In this document: positions 29,921 to 52,489 of the stretch, one piece after another | How the letters are laid out: every line of letters begins with the position of its first letter | Position numbering within the stretch: position 1 is the stretch's first letter | IMG/VR virus record: IMGVR_UViG_3300017699_000061 | Location: 1-55,902 of that record | Length of the DNA: 55,902 nucleotides | Direction: 5' to 3' (one strand) | Source: a virus | Taxonomy: Duplodnaviria; Caudoviricetes | The notes under the pieces: generated by a model | What the model saw: only the letters and a program-made list of their open reading frames with translations | Databases searched by the model: none | What the model was told of the DNA's origin: nothing | Made by a program: the position numbers and the translations under genes

Positions 29921-30100
29921 TCAGGCCTCCACGTAGGTGGAGGTGAACTTCTCGATCTTGCTCTGAAGAACCGCGCCCTTCTTGCTGCCATCCTCCTTCA
30001 TGGCGTGGTAGTTAACGGCACCCTTAGCGAGAACCGAGGTCACCTTGACCAGCTTGCTGGTGTTGATGTTGCGGTAGTTGCTGTCGATCTGGATGGTCAT
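29921..30100 (-). CDS. Small hypothetical protein (59 aa), monocistronic
   Basis: MTIQIDSNYRNINTSKLVKV..; SD ACGGAG; own promoter and terminator. Confidence 0.75.
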   Translation of the reverse strand: MTIQIDSNYRNINTSKLVKVTSVLAKGAVNYHAMKEDGSKKGAVLQSKIEKFTSTYVEA

Positions 30101-30125
30101 GGTGTGTCTCCGTGGTTGATGATTA

Positions 30126-30154
30126 TTTATATGACGAAACGACAGCTAGGTAAA
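30126..30154 (-). promoter_or_regulatory. Phage promoter (subclass sharing CATATAAATAATCATC with 31960-31988)
   Basis: TTTACC-N17-TATAAA. Confidence 0.65.
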
Positions 30155-30175
30155 CAACAAAATGCGCAATCTGCA

Positions 30176-30215
30176 AATAAAAAGAGGGCCCAAAGCATTT
30201 CTGCCTTGGACCCTC
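30176..30215 (-). terminator. Intrinsic terminator
   Basis: GAGGGTCCAAGGCA-GAAA-TGCTTTGGGCCCTC then TTTTTATTT. Confidence 0.85.
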
Positions 30216-30306
30216 CCTCCAGCCGCTCAGCTCGTGCTGATGACTGCTCCCTCGCGGGCGGTCAACCCACCGCGGAGACGAATGGGTTGACCATCCGCTC
30301 CGGGGC

Positions 30307-30654
30307 TCAGGCCGCCGCCGACTCCTCAGCCGCGGGCTCCGCGGCAGCTTCCTTGGCCTTCTTGCCGCGCTTGGGCTTCTCGGCGCCCTCGGCGACTTCC
30401 TTGGCCGGCTTCTCGTCCGCGCCCTCGATCGTGATGAGGCCATCCTCGACCATGCGCTTGGTGTAGAACTTGAACACGCGAGCGGCGCCCTGGCGCGACT
30501 TGAACCGCTCGTCCGCGTCGATCTTCTCGAACAGGTCCGACAGCGAGGTGGCGGTGCCGATGCCAGCCTGGTCGTTCAGAACGCCGAGCATCGCCTGGAT
30601 CTGCGGGGTCTTGACTTCGTCGCCGGGAACCTTGAGAAGGGTGACGGTCTTCAT
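30307..30654 (-). CDS. Putative winged-helix DNA-binding protein with Lys/Ala/Glu tail (paralogue 1)
   Basis: PQ..AML...KSRQ...RVF.FY...M...GLI; SD AGGAG; own promoter. Confidence 0.7.
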   Translation of the reverse strand: MKTVTLLKVPGDEVKTPQIQAMLGVLNDQAGIGTATSLSDLFEKIDADERFKSRQGAARVFKFYTKRMVEDGLITIEGADEKPAKEVAEGAEKPKRGKKAKEAAAEPAAEESAAA

Positions 30655-30708
30655 GGTAGAAATCTCCTGGTTGAGGTTGTGAGCGTCAGTGCTCGTTGAC
30701 CTGGGTTG

Positions 30709-30737
30709 ATAGTAGTCTCGAACCAAAAACTTGTACA
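30709..30737 (-). promoter_or_regulatory. Phage promoter
   Basis: TGTACA-N17-TACTAT. Confidence 0.75.
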
Positions 30738-30762
30738 CCCATAAAGTGTGCCAAGCTTGAGT

Positions 30763-31098
30763 TTATTTATGAGTCACTCCAAGATCAAGGTGGCCATCGT
30801 GGCCGAGCTTGGCGTGCTCGATCTCGTAGTCATGTTTCTCAATGTGGCGAAACATGGCTCTGGCTTCGTGAAGCGCTATCACCATACGAAGATGATAGAT
30901 GATCTGCGCATTGCCTTCCCAAGGCACTTCGGCATTGAGAAACTTTACGCGATCGATCAGTGCACGACAGACTTCTTGGTTTGTGGTGCCCTGCTTAGGT
31001 GGCTGTGGATGACGCTGAACAAACTGCAGGTGATGACGACCTTCACCATCGAGCTGATCCAGTGAATAGGTGTGGCCTGGAGTGATAACTATAGGCAT
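30763..31098 (-). CDS. Acb2/Tad1-like helical-hairpin protein (candidate immune-signal sponge)
   Basis: GH.Y.L..L.F..GTTNQEV...LIDR..FL....P...N..I..L pattern. Confidence 0.55.
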   Translation of the reverse strand: MPIVITPGHTYSLDQLDGEGRHHLQFVQRHPQPPKQGTTNQEVCRALIDRVKFLNAEVPWEGNAQIIYHLRMVIALHEARAMFRHIEKHDYEIEHAKLGHDGHLDLGVTHK

Positions 31099-31316
31099 GG
31101 TTAGATCCTCTGTGAGGGTGAGGCATAGCATTCAGTCGCCAGCGGCTATGCCTCAGATGAAGCTGGCTTATCGTAGGCCCATTAGTGGCGGCCCATTCTC
31201 AGCCTCCTTCGTTGTCCGACAGACACCCGTGTCGTCGGCGCAAGGCCCGGCCTACAGTTGGCTACGGGCTCGGCTCATGGAGGATCTCCGGCCCCGAAGG
31301 GCCGGAGTCTCTATTC
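31099..31316 (-). ncRNA. Structured intergenic RNA/leader with pseudoknot and tandem minigenes
   Basis: UUCG hairpin 31286-31307; GTAGGCC/GGCCTAC stem; 11-bp stem TGAGGCATAGC/GCTATGCCTCA whose loop GCTGGC can pair with upstream GCCAGC. Confidence 0.5.
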
Positions 31317-31910
31317 TCACTCTTCGTCGTCGGAGTCTTCGTCCTCGGACTCGTCCTCGACTTCGGCATCCTCATCGTCGGACTTGCCGACGGCATGGAT
31401 CAGGCCGAGAACTTCCAGAGCACGCCGATAGTAGGCGAAGAGCTGGTCATCCTCGATCTTGGAGGTGACGAACTTGAGGGCCTTCGCATAGCCGGCGATA
31501 TCGGAGCCGATCATGGCGTCGCGCGGCGAGATGATCTGAGCCGAAGCGAGATACTCGAGAAGGCCACGAACCTGCTTCGGGGCGGCGTTGAACGCCTCCT
31601 TGTATCCGTCCGTCCAGAGGGCGGGGTTGGCAACCGCCTTGTTCAGATAGTAGAACTTGTGCTTGAAGGGCTGATTGCCGGACAGGTTGTTGCCATGCCG
31701 GATGATCTTGCCCTCAGCGTCCCTGGCGCGCAGGGAGGGATACCGACGAACGACATTTTTGATGGCGTTCTTGTCGATGGTGGGGGTCTCGGCCTTGACC
31801 TGCATCTCGTAGACGCCGATGGCGCTCTCGAGCTGGTCCTTGGTCATCTCGTGGCGACCGGTGATGTTGTAGAGCTTGGCCTTGGCCAGCAGATCGGTCT
31901 TCGTGGTCAT
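31317..31910 (-). CDS. Rho-N-like HEH domain plus putative winged-helix domain, acidic tail (paralogue 2)
   Basis: TKTDL..KAK..NI.GR..M.K..L..AI (Rho_N pattern); PKQ...LL...TSK....LFAYY...L...GLI. Confidence 0.7.
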   Translation of the reverse strand: MTTKTDLLAKAKLYNITGRHEMTKDQLESAIGVYEMQVKAETPTIDKNAIKNVVRRYPSLRARDAEGKIIRHGNNLSGNQPFKHKFYYLNKAVANPALWTDGYKEAFNAAPKQVRGLLEYLASAQIISPRDAMIGSDIAGYAKALKFVTSKIEDDQLFAYYRRALEVLGLIHAVGKSDDEDAEVEDESEDEDSDDEE

Positions 31911-31959
31911 GATCGTCTCTCCGCTCTTGCGCCGCACGTTTTGTTCGACGCGATGATTA

Positions 31960-31988
31960 TTTATATGCCGCGCTACCGGGTATGTAAA
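31960..31988 (-). promoter_or_regulatory. Leftward promoter of the divergent region
   Basis: TTTACA-N17-TATAAA. Confidence 0.7.
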
Positions 31989-32085
31989 CAGCTATTTTGG
32001 CATTTTTCGAACTATTTTTGGCCGCCCATGGAGGGTATATAGAGAGCGGCGATTTCACAAAGAACACCAAGCCTGCAAATTGAAT

Positions 32086-32114
32086 TGTACATTACCCGTT
32101 AAGCGATATAATGT
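32086..32114 (+). promoter_or_regulatory. Rightward promoter of the divergent region
   Basis: TGTACA-N17-TAATGT (overlapping TATAAT). Confidence 0.7.
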
Positions 32115-32160
32115 CATAATTCGGACAAATGTCCGGTTGCATTTCAGAGCGGAGAATGTG

Positions 32161-32853
32161 ATGCACTCTTACGAAGAACGGCCCCCTGGTCAATGGGTTG
32201 TCGTGCTATTTCCCCAGACCAAATCCAAGGACTATTCGGATGTTCGGCTTTATCCATCGCTGGACGCGGCGGTTAATCGGTATGCCAAGGCAACCCGAAC
32301 CCTCCATGTTTACTCAAGTCCTGGAGAACTCGTCCACCGCCACGGGGGCCCAGTTCTACATAAGTTCCTCACCGACATTGGTGACCAATTTTCCGACGCT
32401 CGTAACCGATACCGCAAGTGTGAGATCGGTGACGCCGAGCTGAGTGTCGCCGAAATCCACTCAAGTGAGCGTGCTAAAGTCGCCGATGAGCTGTGGCGTA
32501 TCTGCCAACTGATCGGCGACAAGTGCACTGGACCTTCAGTCGGTGTTGATGACGACGACCATTTCAAGATCCGCATCGATCGGATGACGACGCCAGAGGG
32601 TCGCGAGACTTGGGGCAAGTTTCCCAAGCAGGCTCGACAGATTATCGAGGCGTTGATCGCAAATGCCAAGTCGATCATGCCAGAGTCTGAACTTCAGAAG
32701 CTGGTGTCTGGACTCGTTGCCAACCGCATCATGAAAACCAAGCAGGATCCATGGCGGATCTTCGCTTACTACGCCCCCATGTTCGGGGATGCTGGCCTGC
32801 TCTATTATCCGGGGAAGCGCCACAAACTAGAAGACCACGAAGAAAATATCTGA
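32161..32853 (+). CDS. Hypothetical protein with C-terminal putative winged-helix domain (paralogue 3)
   Basis: PKQARQII..L...KTKQDPWRIFAYY...F...GLL; SD GGAG. Confidence 0.7.
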   Translation: MHSYEERPPGQWVVVLFPQTKSKDYSDVRLYPSLDAAVNRYAKATRTLHVYSSPGELVHRHGGPVLHKFLTDIGDQFSDARNRYRKCEIGDAELSVAEIHSSERAKVADELWRICQLIGDKCTGPSVGVDDDDHFKIRIDRMTTPEGRETWGKFPKQARQIIEALIANAKSIMPESELQKLVSGLVANRIMKTKQDPWRIFAYYAPMFGDAGLLYYPGKRHKLEDHEENI

Positions 32854-35126: not shown

Positions 35127-35128
35127 TA

Positions 35129-35170
35129 GTGCCCGACATCATACCTTTGTATCAGTGTGATGTCGGGCAC
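35129..35170. terminator. Long hairpin between convergent primase and thyA genes
   Basis: GTGCCCGACATCATAC-N10-GTGTGATGTCGGGCAC, 16-bp stem with one G-U pair. Confidence 0.75.
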
Positions 35171-35180
35171 CTGAATTATA

Positions 35181-36937: not shown

Positions 36938-36966
36938 AATGTATAGTGATTTGGTTATATTGTACA
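36938..36966 (-). promoter_or_regulatory. Phage promoter
   Basis: TGTACA-N17-TACATT. Confidence 0.65.
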
Positions 36967-39682: not shown

Positions 39683-39711
39683 ATCCTATGTCGAGAATGG
39701 CGGAGTGTACA
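39683..39711 (-). promoter_or_regulatory. Phage promoter
   Basis: TGTACA-N17-TAGGAT. Confidence 0.75.
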
Positions 39712-42863: not shown

Positions 42864-42892
42864 ATCTTACGGCAAAACGGGTGGCATGTACA
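42864..42892 (-). promoter_or_regulatory. Phage promoter
   Basis: TGTACA-N17-TAAGAT; upstream AAAATAGTTGCACAA element. Confidence 0.75.
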
Positions 42893-49348: not shown

Positions 49349-49392
49349 AAGTCACCTATATTTACTTTGATCAGAATTTTAATCCTTTTTAC

Positions 49393-49421
49393 ACTCTAAA
49401 CCTATCATGAGCAGATGTAAA
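49393..49421 (-). promoter_or_regulatory. Phage promoter
   Basis: TTTACA-N17-TAGAGT. Confidence 0.6.
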
Positions 49422-49871
49422 CTGTTAATATGTGCCATGTTATTGTTGAAATGTAACAATATTGAATGACATCTAAAATGACTCGAAACGTATAATATAC
49501 AGGATCACTTTTGCTGTGTTTGATATTATTGATCTTTTGAAAAAGTATACTGTATAGAATTCAATAAATTTACTAGACCATGTATTTGATTTTATTATGC
49601 TATTTAATTGGGAAACCAAGCAGTATATTGTAGTTTCAAGAATTTGACAAATATTCCCTATAGGGATATTCTATAGTGACATACTTGGATTACTTTATTC
49701 AAACACTCATGGACTATAGACTTTGTGTCATTATCCTATATAATCTATTATACTATTAAAATAGTTATTATATTATAAGTACTTAGAGTATAATAGGAGT
49801 GTATAATAAATTCTAGTCCATTAGGGATCACCACCCGAAGAGACCGAAAAATGGCTCACTTTTCAAAAAGA

Positions 49872-49902
49872 ATTGTACATCTGAATATCAATAATGTACA
49901 GT
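49872..49902. promoter_or_regulatory. Fully overlapping bidirectional promoter
   Basis: (+) TGTACA-N17-TACAGT and (-) TGTACA-N17-TACAAT formed by two TGTACA palindromes 15 bp apart. Confidence 0.65.
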
Positions 49903-49948
49903 AAATCTCTTAGACCACCATGGTCTTCGAGTCCCAAAGGAGCCACCA

Positions 49949-50245
49949 ATGCTCAGGATCCCCGGCGCCAACAGCGCGGTCGTGAAGTGCGCTGACAACG
50001 GCGCAGGATACGCAGATGCTCTCGTCATTGGCGAAAACTATCACGTCATCTCGGTAGATATCGACAGCACGGGCCAAGCGTATCTTGACGTCAGCAAGGA
50101 TGGCAAAATCGTCAACGGTTGTCGAGCCGACCGTTTCGTCAACCTGGAACCAGTCAAGGGAGTTTTCGAGATACAGGATCCGTGGTCGCAGCCGGCGAGA
50201 AACTCGTCGCCTCGGCATTTCAGGTGGCTGAGTCAGAGAGGTTAA
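49949..50245 (+). CDS. Hypothetical protein
   Basis: SD AAGGAG, downstream of the rightward promoter. Confidence 0.65.
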   Translation: MLRIPGANSAVVKCADNGAGYADALVIGENYHVISVDIDSTGQAYLDVSKDGKIVNGCRADRFVNLEPVKGVFEIQDPWSQPARNSSPRHFRWLSQRG

Positions 50246-50908: not shown

Positions 50909-50937
50909 ACTATAGCCCACGCAGCAAGGCTTGTACA
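50909..50937 (-). promoter_or_regulatory. Phage promoter
   Basis: TGTACA-N17-TATAGT; upstream AAAATAATTGCACAA element at 50954-50968. Confidence 0.8.
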
Positions 50938-51261: not shown

Positions 51262-51290
51262 ATCATAGTGCAACAGCCCAGGCGTGTACA
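51262..51290 (-). promoter_or_regulatory. Phage promoter
   Basis: TGTACA-N17-TATGAT; upstream AAAATAATTGCACAA element at 51307-51321. Confidence 0.8.
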
Positions 51291-51745: not shown

Positions 51746-51774
51746 ATCCTACGGCGGATCTCAGATCATGTACA
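51746..51774 (-). promoter_or_regulatory. Phage promoter
   Basis: TGTACA-N17-TAGGAT. Confidence 0.78.
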
Positions 51775-52399: not shown

Positions 52400-52489
52400 C
52401 TATACATGGTAATACTTGATCTAATCTCATGTACATAGGTCATAGTATAGCCTGGCACAAATAAATATCAAAATGATCTTTAAGATCTA

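Follow-up and report, generated by a model that had tools for sequence, protein, structure and literature searches.

The window analysed here is the whole 55,902-nucleotide (nt) stretch of an IMG/VR virus contig (55.9 kb; completeness estimate 69%). Our subject is a 218-nt spacer on its minus strand (31099-31316), which separates a gene for a 197-amino-acid (aa) protein from a gene for a 111-aa protein with a predicted Tad1-like fold. This leader is real, conserved and structured. Our leading reading, held tentatively, is that it may act in cis as an intercistronic RNA that sets translation of the second cistron by occluding its Shine-Dalgarno (SD) sequence. Judged from folding models, it would be a leader for translational control that is specific to its lineage and whose mechanism is unproven. 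The only full-length relative of the leader lies on contig IMGVR_UViG_3300017700_000715 (hereafter the relative; loci L002, L007, L008, L010, L057 and L080 in our collection), where synteny is shared and the flanking proteins are 84-85% identical. Every literal feature named by a first-pass annotation, made from the letters of the window, was recovered in its place on the minus strand. The two cistrons and the elements between them are as follows.

31317-31910, minus strand: first cistron, an open reading frame (ORF) of 197 aa with an acidic C-terminal tail.
31099-31316, minus strand: leader, or intercistronic spacer, of 218 nt between the 197-aa and 111-aa genes.
31286-31307, minus strand: P1, a GC-rich hairpin of 9 bp, capped by UUCG (in the relative by UUUG) and 10 nt past the stop codon.
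31274-31287, minus strand: 5' arm of the closing helix, the anti-SD AGAUCCUC (31287-31280) plus UGAG.
31278-31252, minus strand: 8-codon ORF, MSRARSQL and stop.
31241-31272, minus strand: hairpin P2, in which the relative has the sole compensatory change, C31266-G31248 to U-A.
31255-31249 and 31179-31173, minus strand: GTAGGCC and GGCCTAC.
31216-31238, minus strand: hairpin P3, with a conserved outer CCGAC/GUCGG stem and an apical part that varies across three lineages.
31160-31209, minus strand: hairpin P4, containing the perfect SD and both minigenes.
31209-31203, minus strand: perfect SD AAGGAGG, followed by N6 and the ATG of minigene 1.
31196-31182, minus strand: minigene 1, ATGGGCCGCCACTAA, MGRH and stop (AUG GGC CGC CAC UAA).
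31182-31168, minus strand: minigene 2, ATGGGCCTACGATAA, MGLR and stop (AUG GGC CUA CGA UAA); TAATG is common to both minigenes.
31119-31155, minus strand: P5, a perfect 11-bp hairpin with a 15-nt loop, 14/15 of which is identical in the relative.
31155-31145 and 31129-31119, minus strand: the 11-bp arms TGAGGCATAGC and GCTATGCCTCA.
31143-31138 and 31167-31162, minus strand: GCTGGC in the P5 loop and the complementary GCCAGC.
31117-31114 and 31110-31107, minus strand: CCTC and GAGG.
31103-31116, minus strand: 3' arm of the closing helix, made up of CUCA and GAGGAUCU, the latter including the downstream gene's SD GAGGA (31110-31106).
30763-31098, minus strand: second cistron, 111 aa, Tad1-like fold.

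The leader folded to a minimum free energy (MFE) of -99.0 kcal/mol, with z-scores of -4.25 and -4.63 (-5.5 with separate shuffles; -2.78 for the relative's leader). It ranked third for structure among 35 intergenic regions of at least 50 nt, behind 35127-35180, a likely bidirectional terminator, and 30101-30306, a spacer that contains a terminator. Separate folds of the window and the relative, as well as a consensus of the two sequences, gave the same architecture: P1, then a long-range helix that encloses hairpins P2-P5 in a five-way junction. The consensus comprises 60 pairs, with one compensatory change (C-G to U-A) and one G-C to G-U change. The closing helix joins AUCCUC (31285-31280) to GAGGAU (31110-31105) and UGAG (31277-31274) to CUCA (31116-31113), and extends to 8 + 4 bp in the window. 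All of its consensus pairs (10/10) are retained in the relative, where an extra pair of the window MFE, G31286-C31104, becomes G-U. CCCUCACAGAGG follows P5, and the two minigenes are built on a 14-nt tandem repeat, AATGGGCC-N6.

In this fold the 111-aa gene has its SD paired to the distal anti-SD (31283-31281), at a probability of 0.98. The probability that GAGGA is unpaired was 0.004; shuffling the upstream 199 nt 300 times gave a mean of 0.23 and one value as low (1/300). Loss of the closing helix cost 8.6 kcal/mol. The leader thus has what marks an SD-sequestering operator, namely a predicted stable anti-SD/SD pairing that is retained in the relative. The first-pass annotation had hidden this SD in a local CCUC/GAGG hairpin. 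Occlusion itself held, but the partner is the distal anti-SD and not the local CCUC: enforcing the local hairpin gave -96.6 kcal/mol (a cost of 2.4 kcal/mol), and its probability was 0.016. The annotated GUAGGCC/GGCCUAC stem was also disfavoured, its enforced energy of -86.9 kcal/mol lying 12 kcal/mol above the MFE. For the annotated pseudoknot, the 6-bp complementarity GCUGGC/GCCAGC is present (duplex -10.2 kcal/mol) and both strands are invariant in the relative; in the MFE, GCCAGC is taken by the lower stem of P4, which competes with the candidate pseudoknot. The pseudoknot is a possible but unsupported pairing, and the proposed ligand switch is unsupported too. What survives of the suggested switch gating an anti-defence sponge is a conserved, structured leader predicted to occlude the SD, without the pairings that had been assigned to it. 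A search of the window for trans targets of the hairpin loops returned nothing beyond 9-mers scattered through coding sequence.

The leader is 91.7% identical to that of the relative (200/218), whereas in the two flanking genes identity is 63.5% and 55.0% at codon position 3 and 87-93% at positions 1 and 2. The excess over the synonymous level of 55-64% indicates purifying selection about as strong as that on protein-coding positions. Neighbouring spacers, at 82-88%, fall below the leader. A third lineage is represented by a 151-nt contig from the freshwater run X2, which covers 31124-31273 with six differences (five listed); in its P3, changes are confined to the loop and to one A to G that gives a G-U pair. 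P1 has 9/9 pairs identical in the window and the relative. Several changes fit the predicted fold: C-G to U-A in P2, G-C to G-U in P5, C to U at the end of the closing helix (G-U), and the A to G in P3 of X2 (G-U).

Three indel events were found in the relative's leader: one base was lost, and there are insertions of 2 nt and 1 nt. We considered the leader as coding sequence and rejected this, as the indels leave no long frame on either strand. The 8-codon ORF MSRARSQL, which had been listed as a further small ORF, is frameshifted to MSRA and stop in the relative and is not conserved.

By sequence comparison, the leader is lineage-specific. One half of what the first-pass annotation had named as refuting it was observed: the leader does not recur upstream of homologous genes, its occurrence being limited to the 85%-identical relative and the 151-nt fragment. 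Searches of 55 loci with blastn and nhmmer found only the one relative contig; a 19-nt exact match in L009 was rejected as chance, since it lies inside a primase-helicase-like ORF. Distant blastn of 1.5 kb against the GenBank phage collection gave only a 68-nt coding match in an Erwinia phage, and three pattern scans of IMG/VR (the minigene pair; AAGGAGG-N6-ATG-N9-TAATG-N9-TAA) returned no contig besides the relative. At 35 of 42 homologue loci, the 111-aa-type gene overlaps the nearest upstream frame or lies at most 21 nt from it. Upstream frames were taken stop-to-stop with at least 40 codons, and L005, L006, L010, L044, L047, L048, L051, L053, L054 and L056 were omitted as duplicates or as N-terminally incomplete. 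A second set, drawn partly from the same contigs, gave overlap or a distance of at most 9 nt at 17/23 loci. The longer upstream gaps at six other homologue loci contained terminators, promoters or tRNA-like folds, and no SD-minigene. Rfam gave nothing relevant, either at E ≤ 10 on 30000-32500 or at gathering score over the whole window, and the leader is outside any described RNA family.

The window has promoters of two classes, located as follows.

31960-31988, minus strand: early promoter TTTACA-N17-TATAAA(TAATCATC), a sigma-70-like pattern match before the 197-aa gene.
30709-30737, minus strand: next promoter, TGTACA-N17-TACTAT, directly past the 111-aa gene.
30709-30737, 36938-36966, 39683-39711, 42864-42892, 50909-50937, 51262-51290, 51746-51774 and 52406-52435, minus strand: TGTACA-N17-TAnnAT sites.
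32086-32114, plus strand: TGTACA-N17-TAnnAT site.

The first class, TTTAC[AC]-N17-TATAAATAATCATC, occurs in two near-identical copies (31988-31960 and 30154-30126) and is probably an early class. The second, TGTACA-N17-TAnnAT, has about 10 intergenic copies in the window and resembles a middle promoter class regulated through an operator. Neither class occurs within the leader as an internal promoter. The single sigma-70-like match, at 31116-31088, was rejected in that role, as it overlaps the start codon. An attenuator, which the first-pass annotation had brought in by way of its small upstream ORFs, was not borne out: 31099-31316 contains no minus-strand terminator-like site with a U-tract. 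With no promoter or minus-strand terminator in the leader, the simplest view is that an early transcript carries the 111-aa gene as its second cistron, and we infer that the promoter at 31988-31960 drives the whole bicistronic unit. The -35 of the 30709-30737 promoter lies within a hairpin followed by UUUUUGG, which may also terminate the upstream unit.

We propose the following course of events. A bicistronic early mRNA would start at the 31988-31960 promoter and run through the 197-aa gene and the leader into the 111-aa Tad1-fold gene. Past P1, AGAUCCUC/UGAG (31287-31274) would pair with CUCA/GAGGAUCU (31116-31103) and occlude the SD, the resulting helix closing the predicted five-way junction with P2-P5. 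Translation of the second cistron would be damped by default, and the closing helix might be opened by a trans-acting protein, by nuclease processing or by ribosomes loaded at the SD in P4.

Several observations weigh against SD occlusion as the function of the leader. The plus strand folds equally well (-102.4 kcal/mol, z -4.15), so that folding neither identifies the strand nor excludes a role at the DNA level. By a generic measure of ribosome-binding-site (RBS) accessibility (-15 to -5), the 111-aa gene ranks only 22nd of 74 genes. The substitutions are no clearer: 9/18 fall in window-MFE paired positions (hypergeometric P 0.27) and 5 break peripheral pairs, while the wobble-type changes are mixed, 3 favouring the minus strand and 2, at the indel-affected tip of P3, the plus strand. 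Covariation can say little with only three near-identical lineages, in which a single compensatory pair was seen, outside the closing helix. The substitution evidence for the fold is thin. Loops and linkers are conserved as well as stems, for which structure alone is an insufficient explanation. When P4 was forced open in the model the closing helix stayed intact, which leaves no mechanism joining the minigenes to SD release, and tandem mini-ORF pairs with a loose SD appeared in 40% of 200 shuffles. Finally, a repressing leader is an odd partner for a sponge, a protein that would presumably be wanted early and in large amounts.

The minigenes are the basis of a rival explanation, which we regard as unlikely: a ribosome-actuated switch in which MGRH is translated, reinitiation occurs at UAAUG and MGLR is translated, and ribosomes on 31209 to ~31156 remodel the junction, for instance by freeing GCCAGC to form the pseudoknot or AAGGAGG to meet the anti-SD. 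In that case the Tad1-like gene would be expressed according to ribosome or tRNA availability. AAGGAGG occurs in 11 copies in the window against 7.2 expected, nearly all in coding sequence, and the leader copy is the only one that forms an SD + ATG + mini-ORF, with N6 between SD and ATG. With a loose 4-mer SD, the window has 15 mini-ORFs of at most 5 codons, against 17.6 +/- 3.9 in shuffles. Loose-SD mini-ORFs, including the tandem pairs noted above, are therefore at chance level, and the minigenes are notable only for their perfect SD and their conservation. The relative keeps the SD, both AUGs and both UAAs; minigene 1 remains MGRH through a synonymous CGC to CGU change, whereas minigene 2 becomes MGLQ (CGA to CAA, R to Q) in both the relative and X2. 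The stop of minigene 2 (31170-31168) lies 12 nt before P5, so that a terminating ribosome would abut the hairpin. An alternative state with the anti-SD on the minigene SD and the pseudoknot formed comes to roughly -96.6 kcal/mol with pseudoknot penalties left aside, where the MFE is -99.0 (-86.4 kcal/mol with the first pairing enforced and the pseudoknot strands left free, plus -10.2 for the duplex). The axe-txe minigene offers a precedent (PMC8708949). Against such a switch, the SD and AUG of minigene 1 are predicted to be paired (probability of being unpaired 0.00-0.14), the closing helix survives the opening of P4 as described, the invariant pseudoknot strands provide no test from variation, and the exact architecture is in no IMG/VR contig besides the relative.

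In composition, the cassette is of the lambda bar type: within a non-coding leader, an SD and an AUG are followed by a few sense codons and then a stop. As sequence features the minigenes are real and their function is unproven; the cassette is probably a ribosome-loading or mRNA-protecting module and not a peptide-coding gene. The most specific form of the switch, in which the two coupled 4-codon ORFs toggle the five-way junction between anti-SD/SD and pseudoknot pairings as a sensor of ribosomes, is improbable. If it were true, sponge translation would follow the translational state of the cell (early infection, defence-induced stress), a regulatory logic undescribed for anti-defence genes.

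We give a somewhat lower chance than to the minigene switch in general to a nuclease-processing or mRNA-stability module, in which the hairpins would separate the cistrons and protect the new ends, and processing would activate or uncouple cistron 2. RNase III sites occur between T7 early genes, and the leader is likewise intercistronic, in an early operon with no internal promoter. P1 is stable and has no U-tract on the minus strand, as suits a 3'-end protector rather than a terminator, and its stacking on the closing helix gives a near-continuous duplex of ~19 bp. However, the leader has no single long irregular two-turn duplex of the kind typical of RNase III sites, and processing leaves the conservation of the loops unexplained.

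A further rival, which we consider quite improbable, is a DNA-level element, with the inverted repeats as protein-binding or single-strand-initiation sites of the replication module, or else a plus-strand antisense small RNA ending at P1. The equal folding of the plus strand fits it, as do the loops conserved like stems, the nearby primase and polymerase genes, and P1 followed by TCTCTATTCT, which is a terminator-like site on the plus strand only. Yet no plus-strand promoter was found, and three G-U-preserving changes fit a minus-strand RNA. With a GC content of 0.61 and only two direct repeats, the leader is also unlike typical origins, for which 49349-50118 is the better candidate.

An RNA of the put/nut type, promoting processive antitermination by RNA polymerase through downstream terminators, appears less probable again. 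The leader lies past the first early cistron, as nutR and putR do, it is a multi-hairpin RNA conserved in sequence and structure, and U-tract terminator-like hairpins follow at ~30745-30715 and ~30215-30165. Each downstream gene has its own promoter, however, which makes antitermination unneeded; there is no Rfam similarity at the thresholds given above, and the SD pairing is left unexplained. Last, a riboswitch, with a ligand-binding five-way junction gating SD access, is very improbable: the multi-helix junction, the conserved 15-nt loop, the possible pseudoknot and the sequestered SD would suit one, but the ligand-responsive aptamer of the first-pass annotation matched no Rfam family in either search, was absent from the 55 related loci and the IMG/VR pattern scans outside near-identical phages, and showed no covariation, with one compensatory pair in 60.

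SD occlusion in cis thus remains our tentative reading, and the gene that it would control was analysed by structure prediction. That gene had been annotated as Acb2/Tad1-like; the Tad1-like fold was upheld by AlphaFold2 (AF2), Foldseek and VIA-wide, whereas no match to PF24729 was found. The AF2 model, built from 115 sequences, had a predicted local distance difference test (pLDDT) score of 96.2 and a predicted TM-score (pTM) of 0.83, with strands at residues 3-6, 10-14 and 21-26 and helices at 40-57 and 61-87. It superseded an earlier model from 23 sequences (pLDDT 79.6) that had returned helical-hairpin matches only, and it has the N-terminal antiparallel sheet and two long helices of the Tad1 fold. 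In Foldseek against the PDB, ranks 1-19 were all Tad1 (E 3e-3 to 0.2, TM 0.54-0.57, 87-98 columns), the next match having an E of 1.5. VIA-wide, which is independent of Foldseek, placed CbTad1 and CmTad1 at the top of 48,161 chains with Z 8.3 and 8.1, superposing 89 residues (model 1-89) at a root mean square deviation (rmsd) of 2.7-3.1 Å. A Z of about 8 is moderate, and rank 3 (Z 8.0, rmsd 7.0) is unrelated; other matches covered a helical hairpin only, with T4 Vs.4 (Acb2) at Z 6.4. In ESM-Atlas, 27/30 matches (score 0.91) fell in clusters with ~25% PF24729 members.

Sequence searches did not identify Tad1. PF24729 (Acb2_Tad1_hairpin) matched neither the 111-aa protein nor about 22-23 close relatives at E ≤ 10, nor any of 115 distant family representatives at E ≤ 1, and a six-frame scan of the window found none at E ≤ 10. 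The 111-aa protein had no Pfam or PHROG match, and sequence and profile searches of the PDB returned no Tad1. The family is nonetheless large, with 108 proteins in one search and 1020 cluster representatives (50% identity) at E ≤ 1e-3. Near-invariant residues in it include G8, H9, Y11, F26, G37, Q41, E42, R45, R50, N63, R71, E78, R80 and H103, and its conserved motifs are PGHxY, QE..R..I.R, N, R, E, R and DGH. Tad1 sponges are trimers of dimers that bind gcADPR or cyclic oligonucleotides. According to 10.1101/2023.11.15.567273, Tad1 is a hexamer with an N-terminal antiparallel beta-sheet and two C-terminal helices. With CbTad1 and CmTad1 (PDB 7uav, 8kbb and 8kbe), the 111-aa protein shares the sheet and two long C-terminal helices, a length of ~110-130 aa and a phage origin; it differs from them in being only 16-21% identical and in having conserved motifs of its own. 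On the structural models we regard it as a Tad1-fold protein and a candidate sponge, not a demonstrated member, and its family may be an unrecognised branch of sponge proteins.

The product of the first cistron had no Pfam or PHROG family and no usable match in ESM-Atlas. Its eight homologues are 39-94% identical in alignment, with an invariant core NLSGNQPF...AAPxQV...LFAYYRR, and the acidic C-terminal tail, in which D, E and S abound, is present in 5/9 aligned sequences, that of the window included. The 94%-identical homologue (P0109) sits on Logan contigs. In L081, which encodes a 50% relative, the downstream gene is a different one and no similar leader was found. Its predicted co-transcription with the Tad1-fold gene marks the 197-aa protein as a candidate early anti-defence or host-takeover protein.

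The contig carries structural genes of the myovirus type (sheath, baseplate, tape measure), together with its own replication genes (DNA polymerase, helicase, primase) and a terminase. Sequencing runs containing the stretch are freshwater or aquatic metagenomes, none of them listed as an RNA run, and contigs from these runs showed no transcript ends. Homologues of the 111-aa gene occur in a Rhizobium laguerreae record and in metagenome-assembled genomes of Hyphomicrobiaceae and Nitrosomonas. The GC content of the window is ~0.53. ARAGORN found no tRNA and no tmRNA.

Further observations concern regulatory sites elsewhere in the window. Several promoters of the TGTACA class are followed by a motif in the 5' untranslated region (UTR), ATCAACYACGGAGA-N6-ATG, and TTGCACA/TTGGCA often stands ~10-20 nt upstream of the TGTACA -35, with which it forms an inverted repeat. 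The twin of the early promoter, sharing TATAAATAATCATC, lies at 30126-30154 on the minus strand. Directly before this early-class promoter, within a 206-nt spacer (z -6.0), is a very strong intrinsic terminator at 30165-30215 on the minus strand, a 20-bp hairpin GGAGGGAGGGUCCAAGGCAG...CUUUGGGCCCUC followed by UUUUUAUUU. The 59-aa gene at 29921-30100 has a nucleotide identity of only 46% to L002 in a neighbourhood of 85-92%, which suggests, from these identities, a cassette swapped between a conserved promoter and the next gene. The 54-nt spacer at 35127-35180 lies between convergent genes and is strongly structured on both strands (z -6.9 for plus, -8.1 for minus), in keeping with its likely role as a bidirectional terminator. 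Finally, 49349-50118 comprises 770 nt with a GC content of 0.36 and without an ORF of at least 50 codons; two TGTACA promoter-like sites within it form a palindromic pair (49872-49902), and the stretch is a candidate origin or regulatory region.

To our knowledge, which here comes without a dedicated literature search, the expression control of signal-sponge genes has been little studied. Gating of translation by the leader, if real, would mean that phage signal-sponge genes are also controlled by RNA acting in cis. A more solid by-product is the large unannotated 111-aa family, with a confident Tad1-like fold and no Pfam membership, which would enlarge the known sponge repertoire should its members prove to bind such signals.

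Long-range sequestration of SD sequences is known in phage mRNAs, in the RNA phages MS2 and Qbeta and in the late-gene hairpins of T4. As in those systems, a distal segment of a polycistronic RNA is predicted to pair with the RBS of the downstream cistron, and initiation would need the helix to open. The anti-SD of the leader, in contrast, is not inside the upstream ORF but in an untranslated spacer, 32 nt past the upstream stop, so that ribosomes translating the upstream ORF should leave the closing helix shut. Moreover, the helix closes a five-way junction, and its pairing is a prediction.

Translation of lambda bar minigenes leads to peptidyl-tRNA drop-off, or to toxicity where Pth is limiting. 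The lambda bar minigenes consist of one two-codon ORF, whereas the leader has two four-codon ORFs coupled by UAAUG. The mg2 minigene of axe-txe is reported to have a positive cis effect on the cistron downstream of it, in a distance- and frame-dependent manner (PMC8708949). All of these share an SD, an AUG, a few codons and a stop within a leader; the minigenes described here differ from both in being embedded in a hairpin and in being separated from the regulated start by 70 nt and an 11-bp hairpin.

The control of anti-defence genes reported to date is protein-mediated, with Aca proteins binding promoters and 5' UTR hairpins (PMC13551039). The same source reports that RNA hairpins bound by Aca2 or Aca1, in 5' UTRs and between the genes of anti-defence operons, tune translation. 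The leader differs from these motifs in being much larger and in that no Aca-like helix-turn-helix regulator was identified beside the 111-aa gene. It resembles them, their intercistronic members included, as a structured RNA adjoining the RBS of a putative phage anti-defence gene.

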